In this document: in pieces, positions 251 through 5,019 of the stretch
How positions within the stretch are numbered: the first letter of the stretch is position 1
Layout of the letters: each line of letters begins with the position of its first letter
IMG/VR virus record: IMGVR_UViG_2534682234_000013
DNA length: 5,019 nt
Source of the DNA: a virus
Lineage: Duplodnaviria > Heunggongvirae > Uroviricota > Caudoviricetes
Direction: 5' to 3' (one strand)
The notes under the pieces: model-generated
The model's input: only the letters and a program-made list of their open reading frames with translations
What the model was told of the DNA's origin: nothing
Databases searched by the model: none
Program-made: the position numbers and the translations under genes

Positions 251-1309
251 ATGCTTAATACTGTAAAAATATCCAGTTGTGAGTTAATCAACGCCGACTG
301 CCTGGAATTTATGCGGTCGTTACCCGAAAATTCTGTTGACCTGATAGTCACGGACCCGCCGTACTTCAAAGTGAAACCCGAGGGCTGGGATAACCAGTGG
401 GCGGGTGATGAAGATTACCTGAAGTGGCTGGACCAGTGTCTTGCGCAGTTCTGGCGGGTGCTGAAACCTGCCGGAAGTCTTTACCTGTTCTGTGGCCATC
501 GTCTGGCATCTGACACCGAAATCATGATGCGTGAGCGGTTTAACGTGCTGAACCATATCATCTGGGCAAAGCCGTCCGGACGCTGGAACGGGTGCAACAA
601 GGAAAGCCTGCGGGCGTATTTCCCCGCCACAGAGCGCATTCTGTTCGCAGAGCATTATCAGGGGCCGTATCGTCCGAAAGATGCCGGGTATGAGGCGAAG
701 GGTAGGACACTGAAACAGCATGTGATGGCCCCGCTGATTGCTTACTTTCGTGATGCGCGCGCTGTCCTGGGGATAACGGCAAAACAGATTGCAGATGCCA
801 CAGGAAAGAAAAACATGGTGTCGCACTGGTTCAGTGCCGGTCAGTGGCAGCTGCCGAACGAAAGCGATTATCTGAAATTACAGGCACTGTTTGCCCGGGT
901 GGCAGAAGAGAAGCATCAGCGGGGTGAACTGGAAAAGCCCCACCACCAGCTGGTGGATACGTATGCCTCTCTGAACCGACAGTATGCGGAGCTGCAGAGT
1001 GAATATAAGCATCTGCGGCGGTATTTCGGTGTGACGGTGCAGGTGCCGTACACCGATGTGTGGACGTATAAACCGGTGCAGTACTATCCAGGGAAACATC
1101 CGTGCGAAAAACCGGCAGAAATGTTGCAGCAGATAATCAGCGCAAGCAGTCGTCCGGGAGACCTGGTTGCAGATTTCTTCATGGGGTCGGGGTCGACAGT
1201 GAAAGCAGCGATGGCGCTGGGACGTCGTGCAACTGGCGTTGAACTGGAGACTGAACGTTTTGAGCAGACGGTGCGGGAAGTACAGGATTTAATCATTCGT
1301 AACGGATGA
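251..1309 (+). CDS. Phage orphan DNA methyltransferase, beta-class N6-adenine/N4-cytosine family (PF01555-like); target site unknown
   Basis: 352-aa ORF. N-terminal motif IV 'DLIVTDPPYF' (aa ~31-40) preceded by a conserved 'ADCLEFMRSLPENSVDL' region; C-terminal AdoMet-binding motif I 'FFMGSGST' preceded by 'HPCEKP'. The order IV -> target-recognition region -> I defines the beta group of amino-MTases. No adjacent restriction endonuclease ORF. Start at 251 chosen because the conserved N-terminal region begins immediately after it; the Shine-Dalgarno is weak. Confidence 0.9.
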   Translation: MLNTVKISSCELINADCLEFMRSLPENSVDLIVTDPPYFKVKPEGWDNQWAGDEDYLKWLDQCLAQFWRVLKPAGSLYLFCGHRLASDTEIMMRERFNVLNHIIWAKPSGRWNGCNKESLRAYFPATERILFAEHYQGPYRPKDAGYEAKGRTLKQHVMAPLIAYFRDARAVLGITAKQIADATGKKNMVSHWFSAGQWQLPNESDYLKLQALFARVAEEKHQRGELEKPHHQLVDTYASLNRQYAELQSEYKHLRRYFGVTVQVPYTDVWTYKPVQYYPGKHPCEKPAEMLQQIISASSRPGDLVADFFMGSGSTVKAAMALGRRATGVELETERFEQTVREVQDLIIRNG

Positions 1310-1349
1310 GATTGCGGAGTTAATCATGCGTCGTTATTATTCAGCAATC

Positions 1350-1425
1350 GGCCCTTTAGCTCAGCGGTGAGAGCGAGCGACTCATAATCGCCAGGTCGCT
1401 GGTTCAAATCCAGCAAGGGCCACCA
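1350..1425 (+). tRNA. ileZ: tRNA-Ile (anticodon CAU, lysidine-type; reads AUA), phage-borne ileX-like copy
   Basis: Manual cloverleaf: acceptor GGCCCTT (1350-1356) pairs with AAGGGCC (1415-1421); D-arm GCTC/GAGC; anticodon stem AGCGA/TCGCC with loop CTCATAA (anticodon CAT at 1383-1385); T-arm GCTGG-TTCAAAT-CCAGC; discriminator A plus encoded CCA (1423-1425). Very similar to my recollection of E. coli ileX. The name ileZ follows the usage I recall for Stx-phage tRNA clusters and is not verified. Confidence 0.85.
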
Positions 1426-1426
1426 A

Positions 1427-1492
1427 CCGCCACTAGCTCATCAGGAAAGAACGTCACCCTGTGCGAGATTCGGAGTCCCCGGTGGCGGTCCA
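1427..1492 (+). pseudogene. Truncated/degenerate tRNA-like element (tRNA remnant at the position where a tRNA-Arg 'argN' sits in Stx-phage clusters)
   Basis: 7-bp acceptor-like complementarity CCGCCAC (1427-1433) / GTGGCGG (1482-1488), then T + CCA (1489-1492). 'TAGCTCA' (1434-1440) matches the U8-A9-D-stem start of both flanking tRNAs. The element is only ~63 nt before CCA, and I could not fold a canonical anticodon arm or T-arm; the T-loop-like TTCGGAG lacks complementary stems. Likely non-functional or highly atypical. Confidence 0.35.
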
Positions 1493-1505
1493 TTATCGGT
1501 ATTCT

Positions 1506-1582
1506 GCGTTGTTAGCTCAGCCGGACAGAGCAATTGCCTTCTAAGCAATCGGTCACTGGTTCGAATCCAGTACAACGCACCA
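1506..1582 (+). tRNA. argO: tRNA-Arg (anticodon UCU; reads AGA, possibly AGG)
   Basis: Manual cloverleaf: acceptor GCGTTGT (1506-1512) / ACAACGC (1572-1578); D-arm GCTC-AGCCGGACA-GAGC; anticodon stem ATTGC/GCAAT with loop CTTCTAA (anticodon TCT at 1540-1542); variable loop CGGTC; T-arm ACTGG-TTCGAAT-CCAGT; discriminator A plus CCA (1580-1582). The name argO follows recalled Stx-phage nomenclature and is not verified. Confidence 0.85.
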
Positions 1583-1869
1583 CACCACACTTATCTGCCC
1601 TGACTCTCTTTTGCGGGCTTTTTATTACAGGAAAGACACCGGACAGTGAAATGTTAAATGCCTCACAATTCAGGCAGTTGACTGTTGCCTGACATGCTGA
1701 GCGTTTGTTAAAAAAATCCTGCATGATGAATCCCCCTGAGCGGCGGGGCATAATGACAGATGTTTGGTTGCGTATTGTATAGGCAAGTTGCGGATTCTGT
1801 CTGGTCATTGCAGAATTCACCGGGAGGCACCCGGCATCATGCTGTATACAGAGATTAGGCATATATCTA

Positions 1870-1894
1870 GGCTTCTCATCGCAGGAGCCTTTTT
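1870..1894 (+). terminator. Intrinsic terminator-like hairpin with T5 tract (+ strand)
   Basis: GGCTTC (1870-1875) pairs with GGAGCC (1884-1889) as a 6-bp stem including one G-U pair, with loop TCATCGCA, followed by TTTTT (1890-1894). Confidence 0.4.
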
Positions 1895-1900
1895 ACATGC

Positions 1901-1926
1901 AAAAAAAAGCCCGAGTGGGTTCGGGC
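1901..1926 (-). terminator. Intrinsic terminator oriented for the minus strand (hairpin GCCCGA/TCGGGC followed on the minus strand by U8)
   Basis: On the + strand: AAAAAAAA (1901-1908) then GCCCGA (1909-1914), loop GTGGGT, TCGGGC (1921-1926). Read on the minus strand this is a GC-rich 6-bp hairpin followed by TTTTTTTT, a canonical rho-independent terminator. Nothing T-rich follows it on the + strand. Confidence 0.45.
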
Positions 1927-1986
1927 AACAGCATGAGATACTTGCATTGTCATTTTTATCGTGTGGATTTTAACCAGGGTTTATAA

Positions 1987-2018
1987 GGCTGCGCAACTGC
2001 GCGGCCTTTTTCGTTTTG
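1987..2018 (+). terminator. Strong rho-independent terminator upstream of the esterase gene
   Basis: GGCTGCGC (1987-1994) / GCGCGGCC (1999-2006) form an 8-bp GC-rich stem (one G-U) with tetraloop AACT, followed by TTTTTCGTTTTG (2007-2018). It lies ~90 bp upstream of the ATG at 2106. Confidence 0.6.
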
Positions 2019-2105
2019 CGGGCTGCGGTTCTCCTCTTTTGATTCTCCTTGTGGCCGGACCGTGGCCCGCAACTGTTGAGGAAAATCCCGGAAAGGGGAG
2101 GAATA

Positions 2106-4043
2106 ATGACATTTAAACATTATGATGTTGTCAGGGCGGCGTCGCCGTCAGATCTTGCGGAAAAGCTGACACACAAACTGAAAGAGGGCTGGCAGCCGTT
2201 TGGTAGTCCTGTGGCCATAACCCCTTATACCCTGATGCAGGCGATTGCCGCGGAGGGGGATGTGACCACGCCAGTGGTTGTGCCCGGCACGGGGGATGGT
2301 GGCTATCCGGGAGTGGTCACCACGGAGCCAGATTATTACTACGTTATTCCACTGGCCGGGCAGTCGAACGGCATGGCTTACGGTGAGGGGCTTCCTCTGC
2401 CGCAGACATATGACCGTCCTGACCCGCGTATAAAGCAACTGGCTCGTCGCAGCACAGTGACGCCGGATGGCGCTCCCTGTAAATATAACGACATTATTCC
2501 GGCAGACCACTGTCTGCATGATGTACAGGACATGAGCCGTCTTAACCATCCGAAAGCTGACCTGTCGAAAGGTCAGTACGGAACCGTGGGGCAGGGGCTG
2601 CATATTGCCAAAAAGCTGCTGCCGTTTATACCGGCGAATGCGGGTATTCTTCTGGTTCCGTGCTGCCGTGGTGGTTCAGCTTTCACCACCGGGGCAGATG
2701 GAACATACAGTGACGTGACCGGTGCCTCAGAGAGTTCTACCCGCTGGGGTGTGGGCAGGCCGCTGTATAAGGATCTCATCGGTCGTACAAAAGCCGCGCT
2801 GGCAAAGAACCCGAAAAATGTGCTGCTTGCCGTGGTGTGGATGCAGGGGGAATTTGACTTTGACGGAACGCCAGCAAATCACACAGCCCGTTTTACAGAA
2901 GTAGTGGAACAATATCGTACGGACCTTGCAGATATGGTGGGACAGTGCGCTGGTGGTTCTGCTGACGGTGTTCCCTGGATATGTGGAGACACAACTTATT
3001 TCTGGAAGCAGAAGAGCGAATCCACTTACCAGACGGTGTACGGCAGTTACAAAAACAAAACGGAAAAGAATATTCACTTTGTGCCGTTCATGACCGATGA
3101 GAACGGAGCAAATGTCCCGACGAACAAACCGGAAGAAGACCCGGATATTCCGGCATCAGGATATTACGGTGCGGCCTCCCGGACGTCGGCAAACTGGACG
3201 TCAGCAGACCGTGCGAGCCATTTCAGCTCATGGGCACGCAGGGGGATTATTTCTGACCGTCTTGCCTCAGCGATTCTTCTCCATGCAGGACGGACGGCTG
3301 AACTGGTGGGTGGGGAACAGGTTGTGATGCCGCCGGATGAGAAGCCGTCACCGGACACACCATCAACACCGTCAACGGACGGGAAATCAGTGACAACGCT
3401 GCTTTATTACCGTGCAACAGAGTCAGGTGGTTTACTGAATCCGCAGGGATGGGGAGCTGAAGGAGGGCGTGCATTGGTAGTTGATGATGCAGGTGCTGCA
3501 GGAGGTAAGGCGCTGAGGTGGACCAAACAGACAGGAAGTTCCTCGTGGTTTATGCAGCATGATGCCGGTAATGGCGCAGACCTGCTGGAGAAGGGCGGGC
3601 TTATCAGTTGTCGTTTTAAAGTTGATGGCACACTGACAGCTAATCAGTACGCACTGGCGCTGTACTGGCCGGTTTCTTCACTGCCTCAGGGCGTCACACT
3701 GGAAGGTAATGCCGGTCATAACCTGCTGGCGTCGTTTTACGTACAGAGCGATGCCACAGACCTTAATGTGATGTACCACAAGGGAAATGCTGGTCAGAAC
3801 ACGAAGCTGGGGTCATTCGGCGCATTTGATAACGAATGGCATACGCTGGGCTTCCGTTTTGCCGGTAACAACAGTATTGAGGTGACGCCGGTCATTGATG
3901 GTAAGGACGGGACGCCGTTCATGCTGTCACAGTCACCGGTCGGCACGTTTACGGCAGACAAATTGCGCGTGACCGATATCACTAGCGGTGCGACATATCC
4001 GGTGCTGATTGAAAGTATAACAGTGGAAGTGAATAACCCGTAA
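2106..4043 (+). CDS. nanS-p: Prophage-encoded sialate (9-O-acetyl-Neu5Ac) O-acetylesterase, NanS-p type: N-terminal DUF1737-like region, SGNH/SASA esterase domain, C-terminal domain of unknown function
   Basis: 645-aa CDS. Start ATG 2106 preceded by strong SD GGGGAGG (2095-2101); the six-frame ORF extends upstream to a TTG at 2049 with no RBS. 'PLAGQSNGMAYGEG' contains the GQSN block of SGNH-type sialate O-acetylesterases with the presumptive nucleophile Ser. The N-terminus 'MTFKHYDVVRAASPSDLAEKL...' matches my recollection of the NanS-p paralogs encoded downstream of stx in Stx phages and in stx-negative lambdoid prophages of EHEC. A Pro/Ser/Thr linker 'PPDEKPSPDTPSTPSTDGKS' separates a ~220-aa C-terminal domain. 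Function is inferred from motif and synteny. Confidence 0.8.
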   Translation: MTFKHYDVVRAASPSDLAEKLTHKLKEGWQPFGSPVAITPYTLMQAIAAEGDVTTPVVVPGTGDGGYPGVVTTEPDYYYVIPLAGQSNGMAYGEGLPLPQTYDRPDPRIKQLARRSTVTPDGAPCKYNDIIPADHCLHDVQDMSRLNHPKADLSKGQYGTVGQGLHIAKKLLPFIPANAGILLVPCCRGGSAFTTGADGTYSDVTGASESSTRWGVGRPLYKDLIGRTKAALAKNPKNVLLAVVWMQGEFDFDGTPANHTARFTEVVEQYRTDLADMVGQCAGGSADGVPWICGDTTYFWKQKSESTYQTVYGSYKNKTEKNIHFVPFMTDENGANVPTNKPEEDPDIPASGYYGAASRTSANWTSADRASHFSSWARRGIISDRLASAILLHAGRTAELVGGEQVVMPPDEKPSPDTPSTPSTDGKSVTTLLYYRATESGGLLNPQGWGAEGGRALVVDDAGAAGGKALRWTKQTGSSSWFMQHDAGNGADLLEKGGLISCRFKVDGTLTANQYALALYWPVSSLPQGVTLEGNAGHNLLASFYVQSDATDLNVMYHKGNAGQNTKLGSFGAFDNEWHTLGFRFAGNNSIEVTPVIDGKDGTPFMLSQSPVGTFTADKLRVTDITSGATYPVLIESITVEVNNP

Positions 4044-4048
4044 GCAGG

Positions 4049-4096
4049 AAAAAAAGGCCGCCGGGGCAGGGAAAACAAGGAGCCAGAACCGGCGGC
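4049..4096 (-). terminator. Hairpin with adjacent A7 tract on + strand (minus-strand-oriented terminator-like structure), just 3' of the esterase stop
   Basis: AAAAAAA (4049-4055), GCCGCCGG (4057-4064) ... CCGGCGGC (4089-4096); 8-bp GC stem around a ~24-nt loop with possible inner GGC/GCC pairing. On the minus strand the hairpin is followed by a U-run. No T-tract follows on the + strand, so it is unlikely to terminate the + strand late transcript. Confidence 0.3.
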
Positions 4097-4126
4097 AAAT
4101 GTCGTTATATCCAAAGCAAAACATGC

Positions 4127-4155
4127 AGGACACTTTTTTAACCAACAGGTATTAA
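4127..4155 (+). promoter_or_regulatory. Candidate sigma70-like promoter upstream of the small-ORF/holin block
   Basis: AGGACA (4127-4132; matches the GACA of TTGACA), 17-bp spacer, TATTAA (4150-4155; 5/6 to TATAAT), ~35 bp upstream of the ATG at 4191. Weak -35, hand-scanned only. Confidence 0.25.
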
Positions 4156-4190
4156 CGATGTCAACACCATATCAATAACCGGGAGGGATA

Positions 4191-4373
4191 ATGAGATTTG
4201 TACAGCTTATTTTATTGTATTTCTGCACGGTGGTGTGCACGTTATATCTGGTAAGTGGCGGGTATAAGGTTATCCGGAACTATATACGCAAAAAGATTGA
4301 TGCCGCGGCGGCGGAAAAAATCAGCGCCAGCCAGTCAGCCGGAACAAAACCCGAAGAGCCTCTCATTTCGTAG
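4191..4373 (+). CDS. Small (60 aa) single-pass membrane protein, unknown function
   Basis: ATG 4191 preceded by strong SD GGGAGGG (4181-4187, 3-nt spacing to ATG). N-terminal hydrophobic segment 'FVQLILLYFCTVVCTLYLV' followed by a basic juxtamembrane stretch 'YKVIRNYIRKKIDAAAAEK' and a polar tail. No family recognised. Confidence 0.55.
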   Translation: MRFVQLILLYFCTVVCTLYLVSGGYKVIRNYIRKKIDAAAAEKISASQSAGTKPEEPLIS

Positions 4374-4410
4374 CAACTTTCTTAACAACACCTTTCAACG
4401 AGAAAATCCC

Positions 4411-4680
4411 ATGTCAGAAATAAAATCTCTGGTCACTGCTGAAGCAGTGAAGGACGTCCTGCGCTCTGAAGAAGTCAGAAGCGCACTGAAACAGCAACTC
4501 CGCCAGAATCTTGAGGCGCGTCTTGATGCTGAAGTGGATGCCATTCTGGATGAGCTGCTGGGGGGACCGGCTGCTCCTGAGCCTGAAGACGGCGCGGGTG
4601 ACAGTGCTGTTTCAGATGGCGTTGTGTCTCAGCCTGACGGTAGCAGTGAGCCTCAGCCTGGCGGCGAAATGATGATGTAA
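4411..4680 (+). CDS. Small (89 aa) highly acidic protein, predicted N-terminal helix plus disordered Pro/Asp/Glu/Ser-rich tail; unknown function
   Basis: ATG at 4411 with weak purine-rich SD (GAGAAAA). By my count 19 Asp/Glu versus 7 Lys/Arg. The six-frame ORF extends upstream to 4255, but that extension overlaps the 4191-4373 ORF in another frame, so the internal ATG is preferred. Coding status not certain. Confidence 0.5.
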   Translation: MSEIKSLVTAEAVKDVLRSEEVRSALKQQLRQNLEARLDAEVDAILDELLGGPAAPEPEDGAGDSAVSDGVVSQPDGSSEPQPGGEMMM

Positions 4681-4755
4681 CCATACGCAGGGGCTGTCGG
4701 TGTGAGCTGATGCCCCTCCTGTTGTTGTGAGCTTCCGGATTGCGGGAGACGGGGT

Positions 4756-4971
4756 ATGTACCAGATGGAAAAAATCACAACGGGTGTGTCATACACCACG
4801 TCAGCGGTGGGGACGGGATACTGGTTACTGCAGCTGCTGGACAAAGTCTCTCCGTCCCAGTGGGTGGCGATAGGTGTGCTGGGGAGTCTGCTGTTTGGCC
4901 TGCTGACGTATCTGACTAACCTGTATTTCAAAATCAGAGAGGACCGTCGTAAGGCGGCGCGGGGAGAGTAA
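4756..4971 (+). CDS. S: Class II holin, phage 21 S (S21/pinholin)-like, with dual-start motif (Met1, Met4)
   Basis: 71 aa '[10 protein letters not shown]...[36 protein letters not shown]'. The C-terminal half closely matches my recollection of the phage 21 S holin. Two hydrophobic segments and a charged C-terminus; SD GGAG (4745-4748) 7 nt upstream of ATG 4756; second in-frame Met at codon 4 (4765). Followed 4 nt later by the next ORF (translationally coupled). Confidence 0.88.
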
Positions 4972-4975
4972 AGCG

Positions 4976-5019
4976 ATGAAGAAAAAATACGAACTGGTTG
5001 TTAAAGGGATAAATAATTA
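4976..5019 (+). CDS. 5' end of next late gene (partial, 14 codons 'MKKKYELVVKGINN'); by position after the holin possibly the endolysin or another lysis-cassette gene
   Basis: ATG 4976 preceded by SD GGGGAGAG (4961-4968) lying within the holin 3' end; the ORF runs off the window end. Product cannot be determined from 14 residues. Confidence 0.45.
   Translation, partial: MKKKYELVVKGINN

Follow-up and report, generated by a model that had tools for sequence, protein, structure and literature searches.

What do the two small genes do that lie between a sialate O-acetylesterase gene and a holin gene in this phage? The window, the whole stretch of 5,019 nucleotides that was analysed, encodes at this place a 60-residue protein (ORF60) and an 89-residue protein (ORF89). 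Both were found where an earlier, sequence-only reading had located them (Table 1). That reading recognised neither protein and proposed an undescribed accessory module for superinfection exclusion, lysis timing or anti-defence. The module is undescribed insofar as no function is given for it in the searchable literature; the proteins themselves are catalogued in Pfam, PHROG and RefSeq as full-length members of the DUF1378 and DUF826 families. The outcome is a sharper map of the context of a catalogued DUF pair rather than a novel type of system. Both the burst of Stx phages and the release of their toxin are dependent on lysis timing and the late operon. The two conserved genes are placed directly between the toxin or esterase genes and the pinholin gene, and they are present in about one-sixth of the complete E. 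coli genomes, often in several copies. The confinement of the families, the order of the cassette, its occurrence in Mu-like prophages, the DUF1378 genes linked to Rz/Rz1, the distant DUF826 members downstream of Rz and an overcalled reading frame of the L0106 type are new here.

Table 1. Features of the window around the DUF1378 and DUF826 genes.
Feature	Position	Strand	Basis or remark
NanS-p type sialate O-acetylesterase (DUF1737 + SASA + DUF6645)	2106..4043	+	Pfam; upstream neighbour, cassette partner
Shine-Dalgarno sequence GGGAGGG of the DUF1378 gene	4181..4187	+	Read from sequence; 3 bases 5′ of ATG
DUF1378 family gene, 60 aa (ORF60)	4191..4373	+	Pfam, phrog_494, RefSeq, dN/dS 0.26
DUF1378 predicted transmembrane segment, residues 3–24, ending in conserved SGGY	4197..4262	+	Hydropathy
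Not a feature: in-frame upstream extension of ORF89 giving a 141-aa ORF	4255..4410	+	Omega; stops in L005
Spacer, 37 nt, with weak Shine-Dalgarno sequence (GAGA) before the DUF826 ATG	4374..4410	+	Conserved
DUF826 family gene, 89 aa, soluble acidic protein (ORF89)	4411..4680	+	Pfam, phrog_311, RefSeq, dN/dS 0.34
DUF826 conserved helical core, residues 1–51	4411..4563	+	dN/dS 0.18; AlphaFold2
DUF826 hypervariable acidic Pro-rich disordered tail, ending MMM/MML/TML	4564..4677	+	pLDDT; dN/dS 0.47
GC-rich hairpin between DUF826 stop and holin start	4689..4717	+	RNA fold
P21-type class II holin (pinholin), Met1/Met4 dual start	4756..4971	+	Pfam PF04971, E 1e-32; downstream neighbour

Families and anatomy of the two genes

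ORF60 matched Pfam PF07125 (DUF1378) over the whole profile (residues 1–59 on positions 1–59 of 59; 135.7 bits, E 5.8e-40), and ORF89 matched PF05696 (DUF826) with residues 1–73 on positions 1–73 of 75 (118.7 bits, E 1.2e-34); the Pfam gathering score is 25 bits for both families. The proteins belong to the PHROG families phrog_494 and phrog_311, respectively, and identical proteins are present in RefSeq as WP_001213059.1 (annotated 'DUF1378 family protein') and WP_001289717.1 ('DUF826 domain-containing protein'). All of these matches lead to uncharacterised families and not to well-characterised proteins. Literature searches by locus tag, Pfam accession and WP accession returned nothing relevant to the pair, and a single paper was found to name these DUFs in such a setting, where it simply records their existence (PMC10462455). 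The two families are very small, with 132 and 105 clusters among 5.8 billion and 53 representatives among 1.84 billion, and their members come from Enterobacterales phages and prophages alone. The region is present in 917 of 5426 complete E. coli genomes, is 100% identical in 319 of them, and occurs at up to 6 places per genome. The pair is made up of genuine late genes that are conserved among E. coli O157-type prophages.

Both are genuine protein-coding genes under purifying selection, with a pooled dN/dS of 0.26 for ORF60 (37 distinct alleles) and 0.34 for ORF89 (42 distinct alleles). The reading frames are kept, and poor conservation was not seen. A longer ORF of 141 residues (4255–4680), which corresponds to L0106 of 933W, phrog_8301 and P0121, was considered and rejected; where its upstream extension overlaps ORF60, omega was 0.23 in the frame of ORF60 but 1.43 in the other two frames. 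Moreover, stop codons interrupt the frame of this extension in the Mu-like allele L005. The 141/148-residue ORF of the L0106 type is an overcall.

The strong ribosome binding site, the single transmembrane helix and the basic juxtamembrane segment that had been described for ORF60 were all recovered. Its start codon is ATG, and the Shine-Dalgarno sequence is weaker but located at the same place in other DUF1378 alleles. The protein has one hydrophobic stretch (Kyte-Doolittle 19-residue mean up to 2.28), which is followed by the basic segment KVIRNYIRKK, and its pI is 9.3. The transmembrane region is under the strongest constraint in the gene (dN/dS 0.18, codons 1–25), and the invariant columns of the family are L9, F11, C12, T13, V15, L18, L20, S22, G24 and Y25. 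AlphaFold2 modeled one helix over residues 2–49. The N-terminal flank carries no charge in 26 of 28 variants, the exceptions being MR- in the window and MK- in the 933W entry, and the C-terminal flank has a net charge of +4; therefore, an N-out/C-in topology is predicted by the positive-inside rule. DUF1378 is probably a small bitopic inner-membrane protein, which would expose two residues only to the periplasm, cross the membrane once with a strongly hydrophobic segment, and hold about 35 residues in the cytoplasm, the first of them basic.

ORF89 contains exactly the 19 Asp/Glu and 7 Lys/Arg residues that had been counted before, and its pI is 4.06. The helical N-terminus and the disordered Pro-rich acidic tail suggested for it agree with the AlphaFold2 model, in which helices span residues 10–17 and 20–50 and the block-mean pLDDT exceeds 90 for residues 21–50. 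The distant DUF826 members P0246, P0255 and P0258 have this core (residues 1–51) alone in common. In the tail (residues 51–89), the pLDDT is below 50 at residues 57–59 and 61–85, with block means of 39–58; it contains 6 Pro and 8 of the 19 acidic residues, and its net charge is −8. The family forms 12 allele groups, and the whole protein varies in length from 81 to 101 residues. DUF826 is therefore likely to be a cytoplasmic protein that combines a conserved helical core of 50 residues with a disordered, acidic and fast-evolving tail. Hydrophobic residues recur at every fourth position of helix 20–50, but its helical hydrophobic moment at 100 degrees was no better than that of shuffled sequences, and an amphipathic or coiled-coil assignment was rejected.

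A spacer of 37 nt separates the two genes in 116 of 151 loci, and the 20-mer upstream of DUF826 is nearly invariant. The remaining spacings deviate by 3 or 12 nt, which may plausibly reflect a shift of the DUF1378 stop. The hairpin beyond the DUF826 stop lies in a region that, as a whole, folded no better than shuffled sequences (z −0.89), and a comparable hairpin is located 3′ of DUF826 in the Mu-like context (L160, 6616–6635). It is possibly the 3′ end of the cassette or a part of the holin leader.

Gene neighbourhoods and expression

Stx-type prophages show a near-universal gene order of NanS-p, DUF1378, DUF826, pinholin S and SAR endolysin (synteny over 154 loci), and in more than 140 Stx-type loci the pair comes directly 5′ of the genes for a P21-type pinholin and a SAR endolysin. 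The context that had been read from the window, with an esterase upstream, a pinholin-type holin downstream and the pair in a late operon, was confirmed, and the two genes are conserved and co-occur. The holin protein starts with MYQMEK, and from its dual start we take it that the holin's own antiholin is already encoded, as in the S21 system. The neighbouring endolysin is of the SAR type and has two basic residues in its cytoplasmic N-terminus (MNAKIRY).

The trio of NanS-p, DUF1378 and DUF826 is also found in Mu-like prophages, where it is located between the tail-fibre genes and com/mom. At least 27 Mu-like prophage loci carry the pair without an adjoining holin or endolysin gene. The lysis genes of phage Mu lie near 10–12 kb, and in Mu-like prophages the pair and the lysis genes occupy opposite ends of the genome. 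In 24 BUCT709-like loci, which have a pinholin and a SAR endolysin, DUF1378 without DUF826 comes directly behind Rz/Rz1 and its start overlaps the Rz stop, and the same overlap is present in three Rosenbergiella prophages with Phage_holin_8, Phage_holin_3_7 and a GH19 endolysin. A 92-residue ORF that follows DUF1378 in Rosenbergiella was considered as a cryptic DUF826 and rejected, as it is a DUF2560 protein. Distant DUF826 genes are located downstream of Rz in L239 (a cassette of the holin_8/holin_3_7 type), in the Salmonella remnants L240–242 and, as a remnant, in Fels-1. The DUF1378 genes of Cedecea and Erwinia are located between tail-fibre genes and dam.

The link to the holin that had been drawn from the window stands as to position, upstream of a pinholin, but the pair is not holin-specific, as is evident from the com/mom loci and from Stx1_499-type phages. 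The latter lack the pair, yet their holin is identical to the shorter, Met4-start form. In the phage collection, a holin of the S21 type is present in 436 records and the pair in only about 308. The alleles of the pair are very diverse (about 68% amino-acid identity), whereas the adjoining holin is nearly invariant, and no sign of allele co-variation between the pair and this supposed partner was found. This comparison cannot serve as a test of interaction, since the holin alleles fall into no more than two groups at 95% identity.

A weak promoter at 4127–4155 had been suggested for the pair. A sigma-70 scan gave no site in 3900–5019, and the same scan in front of DUF1378 was likewise negative in the relatives; this suggestion was abandoned. 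No promoter-like or terminator-like site was found between the pair and the esterase or holin genes. Therefore, the pair is presumably transcribed as a part of the Q-antiterminated late transcript.

A possible accessory role in lysis

Of the possible roles, assistance in phage-induced cell lysis is the one most indicated by the gene neighbourhoods, and a role of the pair in lysis timing is a live hypothesis. We tentatively favour the reading that DUF1378 and DUF826 assist, as dispensable accessory factors, in the membrane step of lysis; together with the mechanism outlined below, it is possible, though clearly short of an even chance. Each family is tied to lysis genes independently and in unrelated cassettes, and the dN/dS values of 0.18–0.35, the frame test and the matches in Pfam and PHROG indicate that the genes are real and conserved. 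DUF1378 would act within the membrane or at its inner face, on the triggering of the pinholin, on SAR-endolysin release, or on both. Its mode of action may resemble, by analogy, that of the similarly built Lcc6 of LambdaSo and of the 'releasin' gp25 of Mu. In the E. coli lineage, DUF826 would be an added acidic partner in the cytoplasm. It could bind to the basic juxtamembrane helix of DUF1378, to the basic cytoplasmic ends of the holin, or to the N-terminus of the endolysin, and such binding might tune the timing of lysis and, in Stx phages, the release of toxin.

No homology of the pair to any protein of known function was found. An hmmsearch with the pair against the PDB sequences gave nothing below E 0.3. 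A Foldseek search with the DUF826 model, which had been recommended as a check, gave no match below E 2 in the PDB or BFVD; a long helix accompanied by disorder is uninformative for a fold search. ORF60 matched no holin family in Pfam or PHROGs, whereas the neighbouring gene did. The comparisons below are of architecture and placement.

Lcc6 (SO_4795), from the Shewanella prophage LambdaSo, has 65 residues, with a transmembrane domain at residues 5–22 and 43 cytoplasmic residues; it is required for pinholin function and is encoded far from the lysis cassette (bioRxiv 10.1101/2024.01.23.576932). Lcc6 and DUF1378 resemble each other in architecture only, with about 60–65 residues, an N-terminal transmembrane domain and a cytoplasmic tail of about 40 residues (36 in DUF1378), the topology being predicted. 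LambdaSo, a lambdoid prophage, uses a pinholin and a SAR endolysin for lysis, and a P21-type holin and a SAR endolysin likewise neighbour the pair. The paper on Lcc6 makes no mention of DUF1378 (bioRxiv 10.1101/2024.01.23.576932). Lcc6 is essential for lysis, whereas some phages have the same holin but no pair, which argues indirectly against a strict essentiality of DUF1378.

The Mu releasin gp25 (DUF2730, PF10805) is an N-out/C-in membrane tether, and two basic residues in the cytoplasmic N-terminus make the Mu endolysin gp22 dependent on it (PMC9239132). DUF1378 is predicted to share with gp25 the N-out/C-in topology, a GG-containing N-terminal transmembrane domain and a helical cytoplasmic part, and it accompanies a SAR endolysin with a basic cytoplasmic N-terminus. 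However, gp25 has 99 residues with a cytoplasmic domain of 73 residues, compared with about 35 cytoplasmic residues in DUF1378. A releasin-like placement, a few genes 3′ of the endolysin, is taken by DUF1378 only in the BUCT709-like and Rosenbergiella relatives; unlike the releasin genes, the DUF1378 gene of the window is located upstream of the holin. Homology to gp25 was rejected, because hhalign of the DUF1378 and DUF826 profiles with gp25 gave a probability of 0.2% and Pfam returned no PF10805 match at E ≤ 1.

T4 RIII, P1 LydB and the dual-start antiholin S21-71 are small late proteins and adjust the triggering of holins from the cytoplasmic side. DUF826 resembles them in being small and presumably cytoplasmic; it is helical and encoded beside the holin. 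A Pfam scan, which was not specific to these three, returned no antiholin family for either protein.

Several observations count against a lysis role. The Mu-like loci and those of Cedecea and Erwinia place the pair or DUF1378 away from the lysis genes, and Stx1_499-type phages make do with this holin in the absence of the pair. In lambdoid and Mu genomes, morons are classically inserted before S, after Rz and after the tail fibres; therefore, the adjacency to lysis genes may be incidental. A bolder form of the lysis reading would make DUF1378 the founding enterobacterial member of a group of very small N-out/C-in lysis co-factors at the holin level, working like Lcc6 or the releasin, and, in E. 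coli, DUF826 its detachable acidic subunit in the cytoplasm, a 'split releasin' that would time pinholin/SAR-endolysin lysis and, in Stx phages, the release of Shiga toxin. We regard this form as unlikely. If the pair does tune pinholin triggering or SAR-endolysin release, it would join Lcc6 and the Mu releasin, and holin, endolysin and spanin would not make up the complete lysis toolkit; the pair would then be a determinant of the kinetics of toxin release.

Alternative functions

The pair may instead be a moron unrelated to lysis, which we consider somewhat unlikely. In such a case, DUF1378 would serve at the membrane, alone or together with DUF826, in superinfection exclusion, anti-defence or host modulation; late operons would carry it at their ends, and it would diversify in conflict with the systems of the host or with other phages. 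All of the observed positions (the gap between Q/stx and S, after Rz/Rz1, after the tail-fibre/tfa genes, and beside dam or com-mom) are known hot spots for the insertion of accessory genes. The very narrow distribution of both families, the high allele diversity with a hypervariable DUF826 tail, the multiple places per genome, and the occurrence of each gene without the other and without lysis genes nearby are consistent with a moron. However, no promoter for expression in lysogens was found, and the overlap of DUF1378 with the Rz stop in 27 loci implies co-translation with late lysis genes. The dN/dS of the tail indicates relaxed constraint and not positive selection.

The idea of a DNA mimic or an anti-defence protein had been based on composition alone. 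Ocr and ArdA are, like ORF89, small and strongly acidic, but much of the negative charge of ORF89 resides in the disordered, hypervariable tail and not on a rigid, folded DNA-mimic surface, and the genes of the pair are late rather than early. Comparison with known DNA mimics gave no match in Pfam, the PDB sequences or Foldseek, and Pfam gave no match to exclusion or anti-restriction families. PADLOC, whose scope is defence systems and not anti-defence proteins, returned no match for ORF89 and only a chance-level match for ORF60 (E 0.039). The anti-defence idea was not sustained by these comparisons. If the genes are exclusion or anti-defence morons after all, they would bear on how the many lambdoid prophages of a single O157 cell compete.

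It is quite unlikely that the pair serves the esterase. In this explanation, the three genes would form one cassette, and DUF1378 and DUF826 would control the folding, membrane association, inhibition or release of NanS-p, which has no signal peptide. The long-tailed DUF826 of the E. coli type is found only downstream of a SASA + DUF6645 esterase and DUF1378, in lambdoid and Mu-like prophages alike, and the hairpin 3′ of DUF826 is present in both contexts. Linkage was seen among the alleles of DUF1378, DUF826 and the 3′ end of the esterase gene (AMI 0.49–0.78), and the holin stands apart as a nearly invariant block, although the linkage drops with distance as plain physical linkage predicts. 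More than 29 loci carry DUF1378 without any esterase, distant DUF826 members also occur without one, and NanS-p variants without the pair exist. No esterase system is known to have such partners.

Finally, it is very improbable that one or both ORFs are non-functional, as chance ORFs or decaying remnants: both are short and lack an assigned function, the Shine-Dalgarno sequence of DUF826 is weak, databases hold truncated and frameshifted copies, and Fels-1 carries a remnant of DUF826, but the conserved parts of both genes have a dN/dS of 0.18, the result of the frame test is frame-specific, ORF60 and ORF89 are intact in every distinct allele recovered, and synteny is kept in two unrelated phage types.

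Gene content and reading frames

The window covers the Q-to-S part of an E. coli O157:H7 lambdoid prophage and matches strain F3113 over its full length at 99.8% identity. All of the window genes listed below lie on the + strand, and stx genes are absent from the window. In the stretch occupied by stx in Stx phages, matches to two sRNA families were observed back to back.

Two small genes, ORF60 and ORF89, lie between the NanS-p sialate O-acetylesterase and the holin S. Both exist as the sequence-only reading described them and are already catalogued. Neither was recognised there; however, RefSeq/PGAP names the identical proteins 'DUF1378 family protein' (WP_001213059.1) and 'DUF826 domain-containing protein' (WP_001289717.1), and both give full-length Pfam matches (ORF60 to DUF1378, E 6e-40; ORF89 to DUF826, E 1e-34). 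No function of either family is described in the searchable literature. In that literature, a single paper (PMC10462455) names both DUFs in this context, and it does no more than record that Stx2a phages have them between nanS-p and S; queries with locus tags and accessions gave no results. The existence of the two genes will not surprise a specialist; here the gene model is corrected, evidence is given for purifying selection, five recurrent contexts are mapped and a concrete, testable analogy is drawn to two small lysis factors, Lcc6 and the releasin.

Features of the window and of related loci
Sequence	Feature	Position	Strand	Remark
Window	N6/N4 DNA methyltransferase	251-1309	+	
Window	tRNA, anticodon CAT	1350-1425	+	Met per ARAGORN; downstream of methyltransferase
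Window	tRNA-Arg(TCT)	1506-1582	+	downstream of methyltransferase
Window	STnc100 sRNA family	1692-1900	+	Rfam, 173 bits, above gathering score
Window	AgvB (anti-GcvB sRNA) family	1902-1961	-	Rfam, 56.6 bits vs threshold 56
Window	NanS-p type sialate O-acetylesterase	2106-4043	+	DUF1737 + SASA + DUF6645
Window	ORF60, DUF1378 family	4191-4373	+	
Window	ORF89, DUF826 family	4411-4680	+	last three codons 4669-4677
Window	P21-type class II holin	4756-4971	+	
Window	DUF1327/YdfR-family gene	from 4976	+	start only
L160, Mu-like	esterase/DUF1378/DUF826 block	3666-6609		
L161, Mu-like	esterase/DUF1378/DUF826 block	3862-6461		
L005, Mu-like	esterase/DUF1378/DUF826 block	1312-3964		
L189-L215, Mu-like	esterase/DUF1378/DUF826 blocks			27 IMG/VR loci
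L001, O157:H7 TR01	second prophage, identical pair	5414-6944		
L002, 933W	L0106, long DUF826 form	3931-4377		148 aa
L003, BUCT709	pinholin to DUF1378	2721-4153		OM816835
L157, Rosenbergiella	N6/N4 methyltransferase homolog	3091-4161		
L244, Fels-1	39-aa ORF, unannotated	3869-3988		
L244, Fels-1	DUF826-like remnant	4001-4084		no intact ORF

An in-frame GTG at 4255 opens a 141-aa ORF (4255-4680) that overlaps ORF60. This longer form is annotated as L0106 of 933W, in phrog_8301, and in protein clusters 109-138 aa long, P0121 among them. In the overlap region, omega is 0.23 in the ORF60 frame versus 1.43 in the other two frames (35 distinct haplotypes), and the Mu-like allele has stop codons within the upstream extension. 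Therefore, the 89-aa ORF starting at ATG 4411 is correct, and the long DUF826 form (109-148 aa) was rejected as an annotation artefact. The overcall is widespread; L0106, phrog_8301 and numerous database proteins 109-141 aa long all fuse a non-coding upstream extension to DUF826 and mask the DUF1378 gene.

Predicted architecture of the two proteins

The features of ORF60 noted from the sequence were borne out. A strong Shine-Dalgarno sequence (GGGAGGG) is followed three bases on by the ATG start, a single strongly hydrophobic segment spans residues 3-24, and the basic segment KVIRNYIRKK comes after it. The weak promoter proposed at 4127-4155 was not recovered, a consensus scan giving zero sigma-70-like sites in 3900-5019. 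AlphaFold2 predicts DUF1378 as one unbroken helix (residues 2-49). The two residues preceding the transmembrane segment are uncharged in 26 of 28 variants, with several positive charges among the ten that follow it; by the positive-inside rule, this pattern suggests that the C-terminus is located in the cytoplasm. With this topology, DUF1378 would be membrane-tethered with essentially no periplasmic part, and its action would be confined to the bilayer or its inner face.

ORF89 is as acidic as had been estimated, with exactly 19 D/E, 7 K/R and a pI of 4.06. The AlphaFold2 model, computed from an 11-sequence alignment, agrees with the anticipated helical N-terminus (helices 10-17 and 20-50; block-mean pLDDT above 90 for residues 21-50) and disordered Pro/acidic tail (residues 51-89, with 6 prolines and a net charge of -8). 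The idea of a DNA mimic had composition as its sole basis; neither the structure prediction nor any search backs it. Because DUF826 has no hydrophobic segment, it should be cytoplasmic. E. coli-type DUF826 tails almost always end in MMM, MML, TML or TMM, and this hydrophobic tripeptide at the end of a hypervariable tail resembles a conserved docking motif at the C-terminus. It is absent from the distant members, which have short tails.

Distribution and neighbourhoods

A 100% identical copy of the 661-bp region occurs in 319 complete E. coli genomes, and megablast-level matches occur in 917 of 5426, at a median of two and a maximum of six places per genome. Each family is very small. At 90% identity, DUF1378 and DUF826 form 132 and 105 clusters, respectively, among 5.8 billion proteins, and every cluster with a source name comes from Escherichia or Shigella. 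An exhaustive HMM search for DUF826 yielded only 53 representatives among 1.84 billion. Across GTDB, sampled at one genome per species, DUF1378 was confined to five loci, those of Cedecea, Candidatus Erwinia dacicola and three Rosenbergiella species. The GenBank phage collection has 309 records with DUF1378 and 307 with DUF826.

In Stx-type lambdoid phages, the order is NanS-p, DUF1378, DUF826, holin S, SAR endolysin. Essentially all of the 154 loci fetched have it; the exceptions examined were at contig ends or the non-lambdoid loci L003 and L005. In Mu-like E. coli prophages (two assemblies and 27 IMG/VR loci), the order is baseplate J, gp48, tail fibre, tfa, SASA+DUF6645 esterase, DUF1378, DUF826, com and mom, with no holin nearby. 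The NanS-p-like esterase that moves with the pair into these prophages has a different N-terminus; its place is after the tail-fibre assembly gene and ahead of com/mom.

DUF1378 also occurs without DUF826 or the esterase. In BUCT709 and 24 IMG/VR relatives, it follows pinholin, SAR endolysin and Rz/Rz1 and precedes the tailspike, its start overlapping the Rz stop. The cassette of this 'Stenotrophomonas phage vB_SmeS_BUCT709' is of enterobacterial type, with a P21-type pinholin, and the 24 IMG/VR contigs are near-identical to it; the host assignment may be worth re-examining. In three Rosenbergiella prophages, DUF1378 likewise overlaps the end of Rz/Rz1, but the cassette differs (Phage_holin_8, Phage_holin_3_7 and GH19 endolysin). 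The close homolog of the window methyltransferase at L157 lies directly upstream of the lysis cassette in these prophages; therefore, different genera share this late-region layout. In Cedecea and Erwinia prophages, DUF1378 has tail-fibre genes on one side and a dam methylase on the other.

The distant short-tailed DUF826 members occur without DUF1378 and the esterase. In one prophage (L239), a holin_8/holin_3_7/lysozyme/Rz cassette is followed by five more ORFs, DUF826 and the terminase genes, and in Salmonella remnants DUF826 comes directly after an Rz remnant. Fels-1 retains a degraded DUF826 trace approximately 120 nt past Rz, preceded by a small ORF with a hydrophobic core that overlaps the Rz stop.

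Possible roles of the pair

As the best supported of the explanations weighed here, we tentatively suggest, by analogy of architecture and neighbourhood only, that DUF1378 may be non-essential and modulate pinholin triggering, release of the SAR endolysin, or both, and that DUF826 would be a cytoplasmic partner gained in the E. coli lineage. Each family recurs on its own at the borders of differing lysis cassettes, and the start of DUF1378 lies over the spanin stop in 27 loci, implying co-translation. The nearest precedents in function are two small, recently described proteins of DUF1378-like architecture. Lcc6 of the Shewanella prophage LambdaSo (65 aa, TMD 5-22, 43 cytoplasmic residues) is needed for pinholin-level function, and its gene is far from the lysis cassette (bioRxiv 10.1101/2024.01.23.576932). 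The Mu gp25 releasin, which is N-out/C-in, aids the membrane exit of SAR endolysins with basic cytoplasmic N-termini (PMC9239132). The endolysin of the window's prophage type is a SAR endolysin with the N-terminus MNAKIRY. Neither DUF1378 nor DUF826 has detectable homology to Mu gp25. Additional lysis factors in Stx-type phages, if they exist, would be moderately interesting, since toxin release is governed by the timing of lysis.

Neither of the neighbouring genes depends on the pair. Stx1_499-type phages carry a divergent NanS-p, then only non-coding sequence, and then a holin whose sequence is that of the window holin's shorter, Met4-start form; the collection counts are 436 records for the S21-type holin, 342 for the NanS-p C-domain and about 308 for the pair. 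A moron unrelated to lysis, serving exclusion, anti-defence or host modulation, would fit the moron-type positions, narrow distribution, allele diversity and Mu-like contexts. However, no promoter or family match was found for such a role, which has zero positive evidence and which we consider rather unlikely.

That the pair are accessory genes of NanS-p is less probable still. They form a three-gene cassette with linked alleles: adjusted mutual information among the esterase 3' end, DUF1378 and DUF826 is 0.49-0.78, declining with distance. However, each gene is found without the esterase, and esterases are found without the pair. Among 65 haplotypes, these three segments are diverse (5-12 groups each) and the holin is almost invariant (two groups at 95% identity); a sharp mosaic boundary separates the pair from the holin. 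At L001, the esterase survives only as a pseudogene, joined to a truncated rusA; therefore, the pair persists intact beside a dead NanS-p.

Distinct nucleotide alleles from 150-odd related loci gave pooled dN/dS values (Nei-Gojobori) of 0.26 for ORF60 (37 alleles; 0.18 for codons 1-25, including the TM segment) and 0.34 for ORF89 (42 alleles; 0.18 for residues 1-51 and 0.47 for the tail). This selection analysis effectively excludes the scarcely credible alternative that the two ORFs are non-functional.
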